Shown piece after piece: positions 4,301-58,155 of a DNA stretch of 64,000 bases (position 1 is its first letter; each line of letters begins with the position of its first letter). The DNA is from a virus (Duplodnaviria; Caudoviricetes). The stretch is from IMG/VR virus record IMGVR_UViG_3300027969_004220, positions 1-64,000 of that record; one strand, written 5' to 3'. A program made the position numbers and the translations under genes. The notes beneath the pieces are model-generated. The model made no database searches. It saw only the letters and a program-made list of their open reading frames with translations, and was not told the origin of the DNA.

Positions 4301-5580
4301 GCAGTTAAACCGGTCAAATTTAAGTTAGTTATTATTTTATATTTAGTAACAATAACATCACCAAAATCCTCTACAGCTGATTTAGAATTTGTAGTAACTG
4401 ATTTTTTAATAACACTTGCATTTTTATTAAATTTTGATGAGCTAAATCCTAAGTCTTTAGACATTCTACTTTCCGTATTAGTAAATGTATTAGGAATTTT
4501 AACCAATTGATCTGAAACAGTTTCAGTAAATTGTTCTACTTTATAGTAGTTTCCATCATACTCTACATAAAATGGTCTTTTATTCGACCACTCTTGAAGA
4601 AACGGATTTTCATTACTTGGTGAGTAAATTATATTTGATACCGAACTTGTAGAACCGCCAATCGTCACACCATTATTCTGAATAATAATATCACTTCTTA
4701 AAGGTATTGATAAATATGGTGAAACAGTTTTAACTAATTCCAAATCGTTTAAATAAAATCCATAATATCTATTTATAGACCATTTTCTTTTAATATCCGG
4801 AGTTGATGGAGTATCATCAAATAAAAATGAAAAATTTATTATATTGGGGAAAACAACCTTATTATTTTTATAAGAGTCAAATACAAACTTTTCAAGTTCA
4901 AATATTTCTTTTTCCTCATCTAATATATCATCAATAAATAAAGATTTATATGTGTATCCACCATTCTGATAATCTATACCATTCCATCTACAAAATTCCA
5001 AATTTCTAAAGTCTATATCTAATGGTGAATCCGGAAAGTATTTATTATCTGTAAAATTCTTTCCTAACCACTCACCTAATACACTTTGTTTACTTAAATC
5101 AAATACTTTAACTGTCTTTAGTTTCTTAATTATTTCAATATTAAAATTATTTCTATCTGTAGTTCCAATGCCAGAACCATCAACTCTAAAAATAATAAAG
5201 TTTTTCGGTAAACCATTTTTAGTAATGTATAAAGGAGCAAAATATTCATACTCTTCACTATAGTTTTTATTATTAACTATATTACGTGCACCATAACTAT
5301 ATAATTCATCATATTGATTTCTGAAATCATTTGACATTGTATCAACATCATTCTCATATTTAATTGAGAATGCAGTATCTGCTGGTAAATTTTTGTAGAA
5401 GTATGGAATCAACTCATCATAGTAATTATCTTTAGTGAAACTAACTTTCTTAAATTTGTCAAAAGATAAATTAGGGTCAGACTCAATACTATCTAAACTA
5501 AATTTATAGTTAGTATCAATCGTAACCTTAATATTTGTTGTCAATCCAACATTTGTTCTTAATAAACCAAAACTTTTCAA
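1306..5580 (-). CDS. Large putative virion structural protein (baseplate/tail-associated)
   Basis: 1424-aa N/S/T/Y-rich ORF with a TTG start, in an operon downstream of a TAATATATA motif. Confidence 0.5.
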   Translation of the reverse strand: MKSFGLLRTNVGLTTNIKVTIDTNYKFSLDSIESDPNLSFDKFKKVSFTKDNYYDELIPYFYKNLPADTAFSIKYENDVDTMSNDFRNQYDELYSYGARNIVNNKNYSEEYEYFAPLYITKNGLPKNFIIFRVDGSGIGTTDRNNFNIEIIKKLKTVKVFDLSKQSVLGEWLGKNFTDNKYFPDSPLDIDFRNLEFCRWNGIDYQNGGYTYKSLFIDDILDEEKEIFELEKFVFDSYKNNKVVFPNIINFSFLFDDTPSTPDIKRKWSINRYYGFYLNDLELVKTVSPYLSIPLRSDIIIQNNGVTIGGSTSSVSNIIYSPSNENPFLQEWSNKRPFYVEYDGNYYKVEQFTETVSDQLVKIPNTFTNTESRMSKDLGFSSSKFNKNASVIKKSVTTNSKSAVEDFGDVIVTKYKIITNLNLTGLTASSFNQNYAEIDPTNKLITSDGSAVKDFQIAGFDSADVWIIEIDGLYHNLVSIDNSIMLSTDYSFIFNQNDFIYKVRGESKKVSTVVDFNNAPKKFSIYKLNFCDIKDFDTRIVDTGYSKYEYEESTNITTTDETKMYLEDIRSLTDPVNLDDFSYQNRIINIPTSSEYTANYETFKIDGNDLSEIWRKNPVYCKWGFHKSLSASDLPYTLNNSLIFEDFNRTTNVYEPFPTRSERNLDYFYTINSATSSYVYHSLHIENVDNNNNIDTTFKFELNKYLNFTYSYFDSITSTTQSTSPYPYDYFTYLFSKSNKFFNGKIKENSNKYSYFNVGDESVPNHTLFRGIKFDIYEVSSITINTNNQIDKINIKASNIFDDYKFSVLLSENNSSPIFDTIDSSKITGLVDSTNNLVWSVIDEWKMDKTYRVSGTAWADATKVINDDILYYRYSSSTTNNPIFATYGVTIPSAPYTQRWTTYTSNEFSVFWSPNYNNYTSLVGPTVSDGEILPLGYKPQEPNKPSIVYNSGEYYFCASQSSTIDFWNPSKSITMGYSTASIVIYKNNYYVSLIDNNYLNPTMNTWMVTYSTTLNPKWKIIESWSPTKQYYWNDNVVYNESVYKLYTSNSDDIPDSNLPSVGTEPVKSKGYWFRNDAKSFNSITGTNSIVKFNNKYNILVGGGKKTTTNLNNGIIIYINKKWKNILVNINISDGTTPNISNSNRDSLYNDINQKLAAANFINAINDISNKYGFSNYISYVVIDENNNIKNYSYSDVDGGNIKDLPYLLRCEEPDKLDIKVNSLFKRAVELPNTLNPIRKLDSGRIVDITQLNYYNNIPVAANIIENQYPAKVFENYHGNANIIKNEIHRYSGYYSPVFYDLQLFERDSNGIPSGGNYKFDTLLNDFGLMKERKIRKVNRKGNILRLGNVNDEKSIYPMLDEFGYSIYDFFIFSSTWDLKYYLETVSVSKNKDYLQKYTSDENVINTFDIVTPIVIPSYIGKTQDN

Positions 5581-22563: not shown

Positions 22564-22649
22564 TCCCTCTTAGCTCAGTTGGTTTGCATTATGCTTAGAG
22601 CAATCGTCTTTTAAACGATGGGTCACAGGTTCGAATCCTGTAGGGGGAA
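22564..22649 (+). tRNA. trnK: tRNA-Lys(UUU) with enlarged D-loop
   Basis: Anticodon arm ATCGT-CTTTTAA-ACGAT; T-loop TTCGAAT; GCA-TTA-TGC insertion in the D-loop. Confidence 0.85.
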
Positions 22650-22658
22650 CTAAAAAAT

Positions 22659-22729
22659 ACGGGTTACTGACAAGGTGTCGGGCAGGTCTCCAAAACCTCG
22701 CTGGGTAGGTTCGATCCCTACAACTCGTG
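22659..22729 (+). tRNA. trnW: tRNA-Trp(CCA), minimal D-arm
   Basis: AGGT-CTCCAAA-ACCT; acceptor ACGGGTT/AACTCGT; G73. Confidence 0.8.
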
Positions 22730-22738
22730 CTAGAATAT

Positions 22739-24001: not shown

Positions 24002-24132
24002 TAGAAAGTAGCTCAATTGGTAGAGCACGTAATCATACTTAGTCAGTCTTTCTCTAAGAAATTAGTAGCAATGAAATAAGTTACTTCGCTCTGTTAAAGC
24101 CGTGGTTGTGGGTTCGAGTCCCACCTTTCTAT
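24002..24132 (+). tRNA. tRNA-Asn(GUU)-like gene interrupted by a 58-nt structured insert (24030-24087)
   Basis: Removing the insert restores CGGCT-CTGTTAA-AGCCG; D and T arms canonical. Confidence 0.7.
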
Positions 24133-24578: not shown

Positions 24579-24664
24579 AGTGAGTAAGCCTTGATGGTGA
24601 TAGGGTCTGCCTGGAAAGCAGTACGTACGTTTAGATGTATAGGGTTCGATTCCCTTGCTCACTA
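24579..24664 (+). tRNA. trnS: tRNA-Ser(GGA)
   Basis: CTGC-CTGGAAA-GCAG; long variable arm. Confidence 0.8.
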
Positions 24665-40253: not shown

Positions 40254-40880
40254 ATGTCAAAAAATAAAATAAAGTATCACTTTTTGTATAAAACTACAAA
40301 TTTGATAAATAGTAAGTATTATTATGGAATGCATAGTACCTATAAACTAGATGATGGTTATTTAGGATCTGGTAAAATGTTAAGATACTCAATACGTAAA
40401 TATGGTAAAGAAAATTTTAACATCGAAATTATAGAATTTTTTCCTTCAAGAGAAGATTTAGTAAACGCTGAAATGAATTTGATTACAGAAGAAATGGTAG
40501 TTGATAACAAACTATGTATGAACCTTAAAAAAGGTGGTTTAGGTGGATTTACAAAAGAACAATCTCATAAAGGTGCATTAAGGATGTTAGATATAATATG
40601 GAGTGATAGTGATTTTATAACAAGACACAACGAAAGAAAAAGTAAGCTAATCAAAGAACTATATCTAAGTGGTAAAATAAAAAGATGTGACTGGACTGGT
40701 AGAAAACATAGTAAAGATACTATAGAGAAAATGACTTTATCTAAAAAAGGACAAGGATTAGGAGAATCTAATTCACAATTCGGAACTTGCTGGATAACAA
40801 AAGATGGAGAGAATAAAAAAATAACAAAAGAAAAATTAGAAGACTATTTGATGGATGGTTGGATAAATGGAAGAAAATAA
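40254..40880 (+). CDS. GIY-YIG/NUMOD3 homing endonuclease inside tRNA operon 3
   Basis: FLYKTTNLINSKYYYGMH...YLGSG; GRKHSKDTIEKM NUMOD3-like segment. Confidence 0.8.
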   Translation: MSKNKIKYHFLYKTTNLINSKYYYGMHSTYKLDDGYLGSGKMLRYSIRKYGKENFNIEIIEFFPSREDLVNAEMNLITEEMVVDNKLCMNLKKGGLGGFTKEQSHKGALRMLDIIWSDSDFITRHNERKSKLIKELYLSGKIKRCDWTGRKHSKDTIEKMTLSKKGQGLGESNSQFGTCWITKDGENKKITKEKLEDYLMDGWINGRK

Positions 40881-40881
40881 T

Positions 40882-40953
40882 GCGAATGTAGCTCAGTGGT
40901 AGAGCTTCTGCTTGCCAAGTAGAAGGCCGCCGGTTCGACCCCGGTCATTCGCT
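40882..40953 (+). tRNA. trnG: tRNA-Gly(GCC)
   Basis: TCTGC-TTGCCAA-GTAGA; U73. Confidence 0.9.
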
Positions 40954-41033
40954 CAGTATAAGTGGTTTAAGTTATAGAAATCTCTATATCTAAGACGTTA
41001 GATGAAAAATTTTTATACACCACTTTAATTATA

Positions 41034-41177
41034 AAGATAGTAGTAATATAAAGCGTTACTTCGTATTCAAACGACTATTATAGGTTCGAATCCTATTGTC
41101 TGCTCAAATAATTAAAAATGCAGATATAGTGTAATGGTAACACAGTAAAAACACGTTTAATAAACTTTCTCTATCTT
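41034..41177 (+). tRNA. Circularly permuted tRNA-like gene flanked by the split halves of the insert seen in tRNA-Asn
   Basis: 3' half (anticodon-like arm, ATAGG-TTCGAAT-CCTAT, TGTCTGC-T; 41062-41104) precedes 5' half (GCAGATA-TA-GTGT-AATGGTA-ACAC; 41120-41146). Confidence 0.65.
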
Positions 41178-41182
41178 ACTTT

Positions 41183-41254
41183 GGGGCTATCGTATAATGG
41201 CTATTACACAGGATTTGCAATTCTGATATGAGATTTCGACTATCTCTAGCTCCA
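41183..41254 (+). tRNA. trnA: tRNA-Ala(UGC)
   Basis: CAGGA-TTTGCAA-TTCTG; G3:U70 pair. Confidence 0.9.
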
Positions 41255-41429
41255 CAAAATAAAAATTAAATATGAAAACTAAAGAACAGTCGCTGGACGC
41301 ACTTTAGTCACAGAAGAATATAAATCTTACTGTGACGGTAATAAAACAGAAAGAATTAAAAGATCATTAGTAAAAAATGGTTCTCGTAATGATAGAAAAT
41401 TACAAAAATATTCTGATAAATTTAACAAA

Positions 41430-57900: not shown

Positions 57901-57970
57901 GTCGGGGTGGTGGAATGGTAGACACGCAGCACTTAAAATGCTGTGCTCCAGAAGAGTCCCTTTCCCGATA
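57901..57970 (+). pseudogene. tRNA-Leu(UAA) lacking the T-arm
   Basis: CAGCA-CTTAAAA-TGCTG intact; after the variable arm the sequence runs GAGT-CCCTT with no GGTTCG. Confidence 0.65.
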
Positions 57971-58074: not shown

Positions 58075-58155
58075 GCCTCAGTAGTCCCAGTTGTCTTCTA
58101 AACAACTACGGGTAATTGGAAACTGAAAATGTAGGTTCGAATCCTATCTGGGGTA
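58075..58155 (+). tRNA. Non-canonical tRNA-Arg(UCU)-like RNA (anticodon arm precedes a D-like arm)
   Basis: GCCTCAG/CTGGGGT acceptor; AGTTGT-CTTCTAA-ACAACT directly after it; then GGT-AATTGGAA-ACT, GAAAAT and a canonical T-arm. Confidence 0.6.

Follow-up and report, generated by a model that had tools for sequence, protein, structure and literature searches.

A circularly permuted tRNA gene in a large freshwater phage and the conserved rod element that frames it

On comparative sequence evidence, positions 41034-41177 (+) of the phage DNA analysed here are a selected, circularly permuted tRNA gene, and we regard both the permutation and the selection on the structure as near certain. The gene reads in the order element 3' half, tRNA positions 29-73, a 15-nt A/T spacer, tRNA positions 1-28 and element 5' half. 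The framing element recurs in other phages, and this covariation-supported family, with 18 permuted genes among 43 element instances, would point to an undescribed route of RNA cutting and joining in bacterial cells.

The window, that is, the whole stretch of DNA that was analysed, comprises the first 64 kb of a virus record of 105,621 bases that is estimated to be 38% complete. Its G+C content is 29.6%, and the public runs that hold parts of the record (6 runs, small shares) are labelled as lake or freshwater metagenomes; the phage is large, AT-rich and from fresh water. ARAGORN finds 30 tRNAs in the window and Rfam 33, and no other Rfam family was matched.

Order of parts and homologues

The permuted gene lies between a tRNA-Gly and a tRNA-Ala gene. 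In genomic order, neither ARAGORN nor Rfam at its gathering threshold makes any call between these two; at E up to 10, Rfam returns a partial RF00005 match of 14.6 bits at 41040-41104, made up of the T arm and the acceptor 3' strand. Direct reading bore out the order given in the original prediction (insert 3' part, tRNA 3' half, spacer, 5' half, insert 5' part), and all of the pairings it had named were found: CTATCT with AGATAG, ACGTTT with AAGCGT, and GCAGATA with TGTCTGC. The parts are as follows.

40882..40954, + strand: tRNA-Gly(GCC), called by ARAGORN and Rfam; conserved upstream neighbour of the permuted gene
41034..41040, + strand: P2 3' strand AAGATAG, pairing with 41171-41177; helix 100% paired in 10 sequences
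41041..41047, + strand: conserved TAGTAAT, a motif common to the tRNA-Asn insert
41048..41056, + strand: P1 3' strand ATAAAGCGT, pairing with 41153-41161
41057..41061, + strand: 3' linker TACTT, within GTTACTTC(G), abutting tRNA position 29; invariant in 10 homologues
41062..41104, + strand: tRNA 3' part, position 29 to the discriminator, from direct reading, the alignment and ARAGORN after rejoining
41062-75, + strand: anticodon arm CGT-ATTCAA-ACGAC, with the 6-nt loop ATTCAA at 41065-70, followed by positions 39-43
41076-79, + strand: variable region TATT, read directly
41080-96, + strand: T arm ATAGG-TTCGAAT-CCTAT, read directly
41097-103, + strand: acceptor 3' strand TGTCTGC; discriminator T at 41104
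41105..41119, + strand: A/T-rich spacer CAAATAATTAAAAAT, 15 nt, the presumed 3' trailer and 5' leader
41120..41146, + strand: tRNA 5' part, positions 1-28, from direct reading and the alignment
41120-26, + strand: acceptor 5' strand GCAGATA, followed by TA at 41127-28
41129-43, + strand: D arm GTGT-AATGGTA-ACAC, followed by A26 and then G27-T28 at 41145-46
41147..41152, + strand: A-rich 5' linker AAAAAC between tRNA position 28 and P1; variable and A-rich elsewhere
41153..41161, + strand: P1 5' strand ACGTTTAAT, from the alignment
41162..41170, + strand: conserved AAAC-TT-TCT stretch AAACTTTCT, supplying the As of the internal loop and the pyrimidine side of the bulged helix
41171..41177, + strand: P2 5' strand CTATCTT, from the alignment and RNAalifold
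41183..41255, + strand: tRNA-Ala(UGC), called by ARAGORN and Rfam; conserved downstream neighbour of the permuted gene

CCA is not encoded in the permuted gene. Between the two conserved stretches of the element, RNAalifold (pairs 9-139 and 10-138) joins A-G at 41042-43 to C-U at 41169-70, leaving U 41041 bulged, and a further pairing of AA at 41045-46 with UU at 41167-68 is probable. P2, which RNAalifold also predicts, has undergone two U-A to U-G changes in the 10-sequence alignment. Folding of the window sequence on its own gave the same structure at -26.8 kcal/mol (z = -2.42; 4 out of 200 shuffles were as stable).

A blastn search of 50,697 phage records returned a single match to the element, LR745206.1 (634,780 bases), with 75.7% identity over exactly the permuted stretch. 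The permuted order is the same in that genome, and so is the Gly-X-Ala gene order around it. Additional homologues came from pattern scans of IMG/VR and metagenome contigs. With the window and 14 loci examined, 14 match the full-length pattern, L149 being cut by the contig end, and these give 10 distinct sequences: the window, LR745206.1, three IMG/VR contigs (131,933, 385,333 and 476,236 bases) and metagenome contigs. The permuted order is kept in all 10, nine of them besides the window, from independent assemblies. A search for permuted and linear versions had been proposed beforehand, and it thus gave ten distinct permuted sequences and, as a linear-insert form, locus L198.

The structure is strongly supported by the alignment of the 10 sequences. 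When a hand-written cloverleaf-plus-rod structure was laid over it, 96.1% of cells showed standard pairing, against 28-47% when the 3' partners were slid by 1-3 columns as a control. Both sides have changed in 13 of 36 pairs, a number reached by none of 500 shuffles. The acceptor stem, whose strands face each other across the spacer, is 100% paired, with compensatory changes in 5 of its 7 pairs; the spacer itself varies in length and sequence while the acceptor strands on either side of it covary. In the T stem 2 of 5 pairs are compensatory. The alignment bears out all four tRNA stems; a few cells of the D stem and of positions 27-28 are left unpaired because MAFFT shifted one row (L144) by one column. 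Compensatory stem changes in the flanks had been part of the original prediction, and P1, which joins the flanks, indeed has 5 of its 9 pairs changed on both sides. RNAalifold independently returned the same nested fold, with 37 pairs, 13 of them compensatory. In addition, contigs of two further runs carry a paired change at 41101 and 41122 with the permuted order kept.

It is very improbable that the locus is an assembly artefact, a chance juxtaposition of tRNA fragments or an inverted-repeat mobile element acting purely at the DNA level. The flanks are imperfect inverted repeats and the standard programs call no tRNA in genomic order, as such an origin would have it, but the homologues, the covariation that crosses the spacer and the tRNA calls obtained after rejoining (below) indicate neither an artefact nor two fragments. 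An assembly artefact had been named at the outset as what would overturn the prediction, and it is contradicted by the independent assemblies and by the contigs of the two further runs; that one misassembly has spread between records is very unlikely, given the divergence of the homologues and their independent sources. G-U wobbles are confined to the tRNA strand, which argues for pairing at the RNA rather than the DNA level, and the element halves, far from being interchangeable repeats, are strongly asymmetric and always in the same orientation as the tRNAs.

The rejoined tRNA and its anticodon loop

When the halves were rejoined in silico at G27-U28 | C29, ARAGORN called a tRNA in all ten homologues. 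The call was Cys(GCA) for LR745206.1, Asp(GUC) for L144 and Glu(UUC) for L124, L125, L142 and L148. For the window, L106, L145 and L147 it was a tRNA with a two-base 'anticodon', because the loop ATTCAA has 6 nt; the seven-nucleotide anticodon loop is found in 6/10 homologues and is absent from these four. Since ARAGORN accepts 1-3 extra bases, its calls do not pin down the splice borders. The irregular loop of the original prediction is therefore real and common to 4 of the 10 distinct homologues. Its Gly-like acceptor stem did not hold up as a guide to identity: the stem is not informative for Gly, and the anticodons of the relatives are GCA, GUC and UUC.

Within the clade with the 6-nt loop, the window has U-A at acceptor pair 3-70 where the other members have C-G, and one P1 pair varies between G-U, G-C and A-U. 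Such compensatory changes in the acceptor stem and P1 after the loss of one loop nucleotide show that the structure is under selection and the shortened loop maintained, and they make decay unlikely. Because the 6-nt loop (AUUCAA) is conserved in the clade, the rejoined product of the window is probably not an ordinary decoder, as far as can be judged from its sequence. Recoding of TGA or TAG, which might have accounted for a reading of the loop as UCA, was rejected, since the longest ORFs become no longer with either codon as sense. Under code 11 (the standard code), 88% of the record is covered by ORFs of at least 100 aa.

Orthologues in the Gly-X-Ala slot thus carry differing anticodons (GCA, GUC, UUC) or the 6-nt loop, and their discriminator is U in 8/10 and A in L106 and L147. 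The anticodon in this slot seems, from these sequences, to have undergone repeated remodelling. In another phage (L112 (-) ~2506-2580), element halves flank a complete tRNA whose anticodon is UCA and which ARAGORN reports as SeC(tca); this tRNA encodes ACCA, may be mismatched at C1-A72, and is a candidate opal suppressor.

The rod element and its architectures

The window holds a second, uninterrupted copy of the element.

24002..24132, + strand: tRNA-Asn(GTT), RF00005 44.8 bits over 131 nt
24030-24087, + strand: insert of 58 nt in tRNA-Asn, between positions 28 and 29, with the terminal hairpin CTAA-GAAA-TTAG

The permuted copy is open at the position of this insert's terminal hairpin. In the 105,621-base record the combined motif TAGYAAT-N3-12-GTTACTTC is found twice in the forward direction, exactly at the permuted gene and the Asn insert, with no occurrence in reverse and none in a backwards-read control. 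The motifs that the original prediction had seen in both the flanks and the tRNA-Asn insert are therefore real, and they support, together with the position of the hairpin, its view that the permuted gene holds the same element opened at the terminal loop. In a complete 173-kb phage (L010) the Asn orthologue is itself permuted at the same site, at about 4860-4990. A search for intron-less Asn orthologues gave two matches, the known relative and one with a different insert, and blastn of the Asn insert against the 50,697 phage records gave no match to the insert.

To collect element instances, matched 3'/5' half-pairs were found by script in the loci examined, with the UACUUC-type linker motif as anchor. 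This gave 43 instances, one of which (L161) is a chance match within an archaeal coding region. On its 5' side the element runs from the 5' exon through an A-rich linker, the P1 5' strand (mostly with AC at its start), AAAY and UU-CU-CU into P2; the return strand runs from P2' through AG-U-AG-U/C-AA-U, the P1 3' strand (ending in GU) and UACUUC(G) into the 3' exon. The paired halves form an irregular rod of ~20 bp made up of P1, an AAAY/U internal loop, a 6-bp bulged helix and P2. The conserved 6-bp helix, with two single-nucleotide bulges, is formed by the pyrimidine run and the AGUAGUAA run, and is supported in L010 by a change of TTCT to TTCC together with TAG to TGG. In cognate halves 6.84 P1 pairs are formed, versus a mean of 5.55 and a maximum of 6.12 with shuffled partners (200 shuffles). 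Strict conservation is seen at non-helical positions, namely UACUUCG, AAAY and the bulged U's. As an alternative, a local hairpin AGUAAU/GUUACU was considered and rejected, the variants TAGCAAT, TAGTCAT and TAGTAAA being uncompensated.

The instances fall into four architectures, with insertion sites at 7/8 or 9/10, at 28/29 and at the variable/T junction.

Ordinary inserts: 4/43, the chance match L161 among them
Permuted tRNAs: 18/43, split at three different tRNA sites
Permuted, split at 28/29: the window type, Asn in L010 and L132, and L038/L105
Permuted, split at the variable/T junction: L010, L025, L126 and L130
Halves flanking a complete tRNA: 6/43, the element 3' border at most 2 nt from the tRNA 5' end in 6/6
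Bodies without the acceptor 5' strand, with a hairpin only, or with almost nothing: 15/43

By our own reading of the loci, the start of the 3' exon relative to the conserved motif GTTACTTC / GUUACUUC varies, lying at -2 or -1 in the window-type genes and L132, at 0 in the window's Asn gene and L198, and at +3 in L038. A scan with the D-arm sequence recovered contiguous tRNAs with the same D arm, the linear-insert L198 and permuted genes with other flank families. Across one genome each of 185,579 prokaryote species, the exact element pattern gave 11 chance-like matches in ordinary-looking DNA with no tRNA context.

In eight loci (L037, L049, L123, L129, L099, L060, L015:5553 and L025:344) the halves enclose D, anticodon and T arms without an acceptor 5' strand. 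Such bodies are not chargeable as they stand and would become small circular tRNA-like RNAs if excised and joined; some are conserved in many contigs, at least 7 loci carrying L037 in identical form. A search elsewhere in the same loci for the acceptor 5' strands that these bodies lack gave chance-like matches only. In other instances, namely L049 (-) ~1056-1140, L025 (-) ~483-580 and L126 (-) ~4785-4860, there is almost nothing between the halves or just an anticodon-like hairpin, with the loops TTTGGAT and TTTGGAC; these are possibly relics or minimal circles. Still other phage tRNAs are permuted or interrupted at 28/29 with different flanks: L169, L212 and L214 have TTTCAGCAAT flanks and L178 has GTCGAAGGATGGAAGGTTAAC flanks, and together with L193 they are split after ...CACAGT or ...GAGCACG, the flanks again starting A-rich. 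With such diversity of flanks at 28/29, the elements seem to fall into several families.

Processing, known systems and gene neighbourhood

A literature search found no report of a permuted or split tRNA gene in phages or bacteria, in agreement with the original statement that none was known in phages. Permuted tRNA genes are known from the red alga Cyanidioschyzon merolae, some green algae, nucleomorphs and the archaeon Thermofilum pendens. Their termini form a bulge-helix-bulge (BHB) motif that is cut by the archaeal/eukaryal splicing endonuclease, and to our knowledge permuted and split tRNA genes are confined to organisms in which that endonuclease exists. As in C. merolae and Thermofilum, the 3' half is encoded ahead of the 5' half with a short spacer between the acceptor strands and complementary termini at the split, and the maturation to be expected is likewise a joining at the split with the spacer opened by RNase P and 3' processing. 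The differences are that the gene is in a bacteriophage genome, that no such endonuclease was found in the five phage records searched, that the split is at 28/29 in the anticodon stem, and that the termini form a sequence-conserved rod, AGUAGUAAU...GUUACUUCG with AAAY-UUCUCU. By inspection no BHB, with its two 3-nt bulges 4 bp apart at the exon borders, was seen at the phage termini. The split tRNAs of Nanoarchaeum equitans and the tri-split tRNAs of Caldivirga are separate transcripts joined at BHB motifs; they resemble the phage gene in that tRNA pieces are reunited by complementary non-tRNA extensions, whereas the phage parts are both on one transcript, in permuted order.

Group I introns of bacterial and phage tRNAs exceed 200 nt, lie in the anticodon loop and have a P1-P9 core. 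The phage element similarly interrupts a bacterial-type tRNA gene, but it is ~58 nt long and sits in the anticodon stem or at other sites; a group I intron was rejected on the 58-nt length of the insert and on the lack of an Rfam match at the gathering threshold or at E up to 10. In phage T4, tRNAs broken by a host nuclease are repaired by polynucleotide kinase and RNA ligase 1. Relatives carrying the permuted gene resemble T4 in having Rnl1- and Rnl2-family ligase genes; unlike in T4 damage repair, the action of a ligase on the element is putative. A related description is that of the tRNAs of Lak megaphages, whose introns were called 'enigmatic', with highly conserved sequence and unexplained splicing, and phage tRNA introns were stated to be unreported before then (Devoto et al. 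2019, PMC6784885). Compared by description, both interrupt the tRNA genes of very large phages with short inserts; the Lak introns reported there are linear only, and permuted genes are not described (PMC6784885).

Candidate enzymes were sought by profile in five related or own records, the own record being the 38% complete one. Rnl2-type ligase (PF09414) was found in 4/5, Rnl1-type ligase (PF09511) in 3/5 and the CCA-adding family (PF01743) in 4/5. The archaeal splicing endonuclease EndA/Sen (PF01974) and RtcB (PF01139) were each found in 0/5 phage records, three of them at least 95% complete, and the RNase III family in 0/5 records; the host may supply RtcB. No nuclease candidate was seen near the Rnl1 and Rnl2 genes of LR745206.1, whose neighbours are a ligase, an HD-domain protein, an adenylate kinase and a methyltransferase. 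Four of the six public runs were compared with the record. In the two of them that are metatranscriptomes, exact phage contigs were present in coding regions, none over 41034-41177 or 24002-24132, and no joined form turned up at the expected junctions.

Several element-bearing phages also carry the GOLLD RNA (RF02032, 152-288 bits) within tRNA-rich regions (L133 3190-3605 (-), L130 451-938 (-), LR745206.1 420875-421280 and a 385-kb relative 282430-282837). GOLLD was rejected as a trans-acting partner, being present in 2/5 records and absent from two element-bearing genomes that are 97% and 100% complete. ROOL RNA matched in 0/5 records, the control likewise giving no match.

From the sequence comparisons, the best pathway for the permuted gene would be splicing with ligation, to which we give a probability of roughly 0.5. 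A single transcript would comprise the element 3' half, tRNA nucleotides 29-73, the spacer, tRNA nucleotides 1-28 and the element 5' half. The rod would set nucleotides 28 and 29 side by side in the anticodon stem; it would then be cut away and the 28|29 nick sealed, the favoured catalysts being proteins, such as a structure-sensing nuclease with the Rnl1/Rnl2-type ligases of related phages, or host enzymes. The spacer would be opened by RNase P and 3' trimming, and the 3' end completed by the CCA-adding enzyme. The Asn insert 24030-24087 would be removed in the same way, the permuted gene representing the element opened at a dispensable terminal loop. Removal of the rod and sealing are favoured because linear, permuted and contiguous versions coexist, because a nick within a duplex is an ideal ligase substrate, and because a ~20-bp rod in the anticodon stem should impede the ribosome. 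The ligase genes are circumstantial evidence for splicing, being common in large phages. Two observations sit badly with the simplest form of this model: the variable distance of the exon border from GTTACTTC does not fit a simple sequence-measured cut, and excision of the 15/43 acceptor-less or near-empty bodies would give small circles.

Given the variable exon border and the lack of a nuclease candidate, the main rival to splicing is a tRNA of two pieces, in which the spacer is cut but no ligation occurs and the halves are held non-covalently by P1/P2 and the tRNA stems, the rod being kept or trimmed. Offsets of -2 to +3 between motif and exon would be natural if no cut were made there, the absence of the splicing nuclease and RtcB from the five phage records would pose no difficulty, P1, P2 and the acceptor stem would hold the pieces with more than 20 bp, and the 7/8 or 9/10, 28/29 and variable/T sites lie, in the tRNA three-dimensional fold, near the core from which the class II variable arm extends. 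We nevertheless consider this rather unlikely, since the rod retained inside the anticodon stem should hinder ribosome binding and since phages have tRNAs with the same D arm in linear-insert, permuted and contiguous form, which suggests convergence on one mature product; the bodies without an acceptor strand are left unexplained here too. If, instead, the element were a new small self-processing RNA, it would cleave at both exon borders and religate through 2',3'-cyclic-phosphate chemistry, similar to a 'twin' nucleolytic ribozyme. Strict conservation at non-helical positions, the occurrence of four architectures at several tRNA sites, as for an autonomous module, and the failure to find a protein candidate would suit such an RNA. 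It is however unlikely. With the threshold relaxed to an E of 10, no Rfam ribozyme (hammerhead, twister, pistol, hatchet, hairpin and HDV-like families among them) matched in 40850-41300 or 24020-24100. Unusually for a ribozyme, the conserved nucleotides lie at differing distances from the exon borders. A rod with conserved bulges looks more like a protein-binding site, and the hairpin first proposed, AGUAAU/GUUACU, fails.

A further alternative bears on the product rather than on its maturation. The window copy might be non-translational: a gene in decay, or a tRNA-like RNA that acts as decoy or regulator, such as a bait for host anticodon nucleases. The 6-nt loop and two-base 'anticodon' of 4/10 homologues are in keeping with this, as are the differing anticodons of the orthologues, the many family members without an acceptor strand and the standard code, under which a UCA suppressor would have no obvious use. 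Decay is unlikely in view of the compensatory acceptor and P1 changes that followed the loop loss, and a decoy is without direct support, so that we hold this alternative to be improbable.

Beyond splicing of the one gene, the phages may have a tRNA splicing or assembly system apart from both the BHB/endonuclease and the group I systems, in which a portable rod of ~55 nt marks sites of cutting and joining; this wider reading is tentative, and we place it somewhat below even odds. By it, tRNA genes would be interrupted, permuted at several sites or made into small circular tRNA-like RNAs, and catalysis would come either from the RNA itself or from an enzyme of phage or host that awaits discovery. 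The family implies that standard tRNA finders undercount phage tRNAs, and the element would be a compact natural module for RNA circularisation or permutation. Large phages have many orphan RNA ligases, for which the permuted gene offers a concrete test substrate. The conserved 6-nt loop and the element-flanked acceptor-less bodies hint at non-decoding tRNA-like RNAs.

Immediately upstream of tRNA-Gly lies a 208-aa ORF (window 40254-40880 (+)) with a weak match to SegE-type GIY-YIG proteins (E 9e-4, under the curated cut-off). In L130, a C-terminal sequence resembling that of this ORF stops right before an element half; free-standing homing-endonuclease-like genes adjoin these element-linked tRNA genes. 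The tRNA set of the window includes many non-standard forms, and further tRNA-like genes are overlong or low-scoring (Rfam 31.8-55.5 bits). They lie at 22564-22645, 22660-22730, 24580-24663, 57901-57970, 58075-58155, 59049-59134, 59145-59225, 59899-59981, 60152-60239 and 60555-60635. One tRNA-like gene of the window has a D-loop insertion of 11 nt at about 22584-22594, and the Asn gene at 59049-59134 has a long extra arm.
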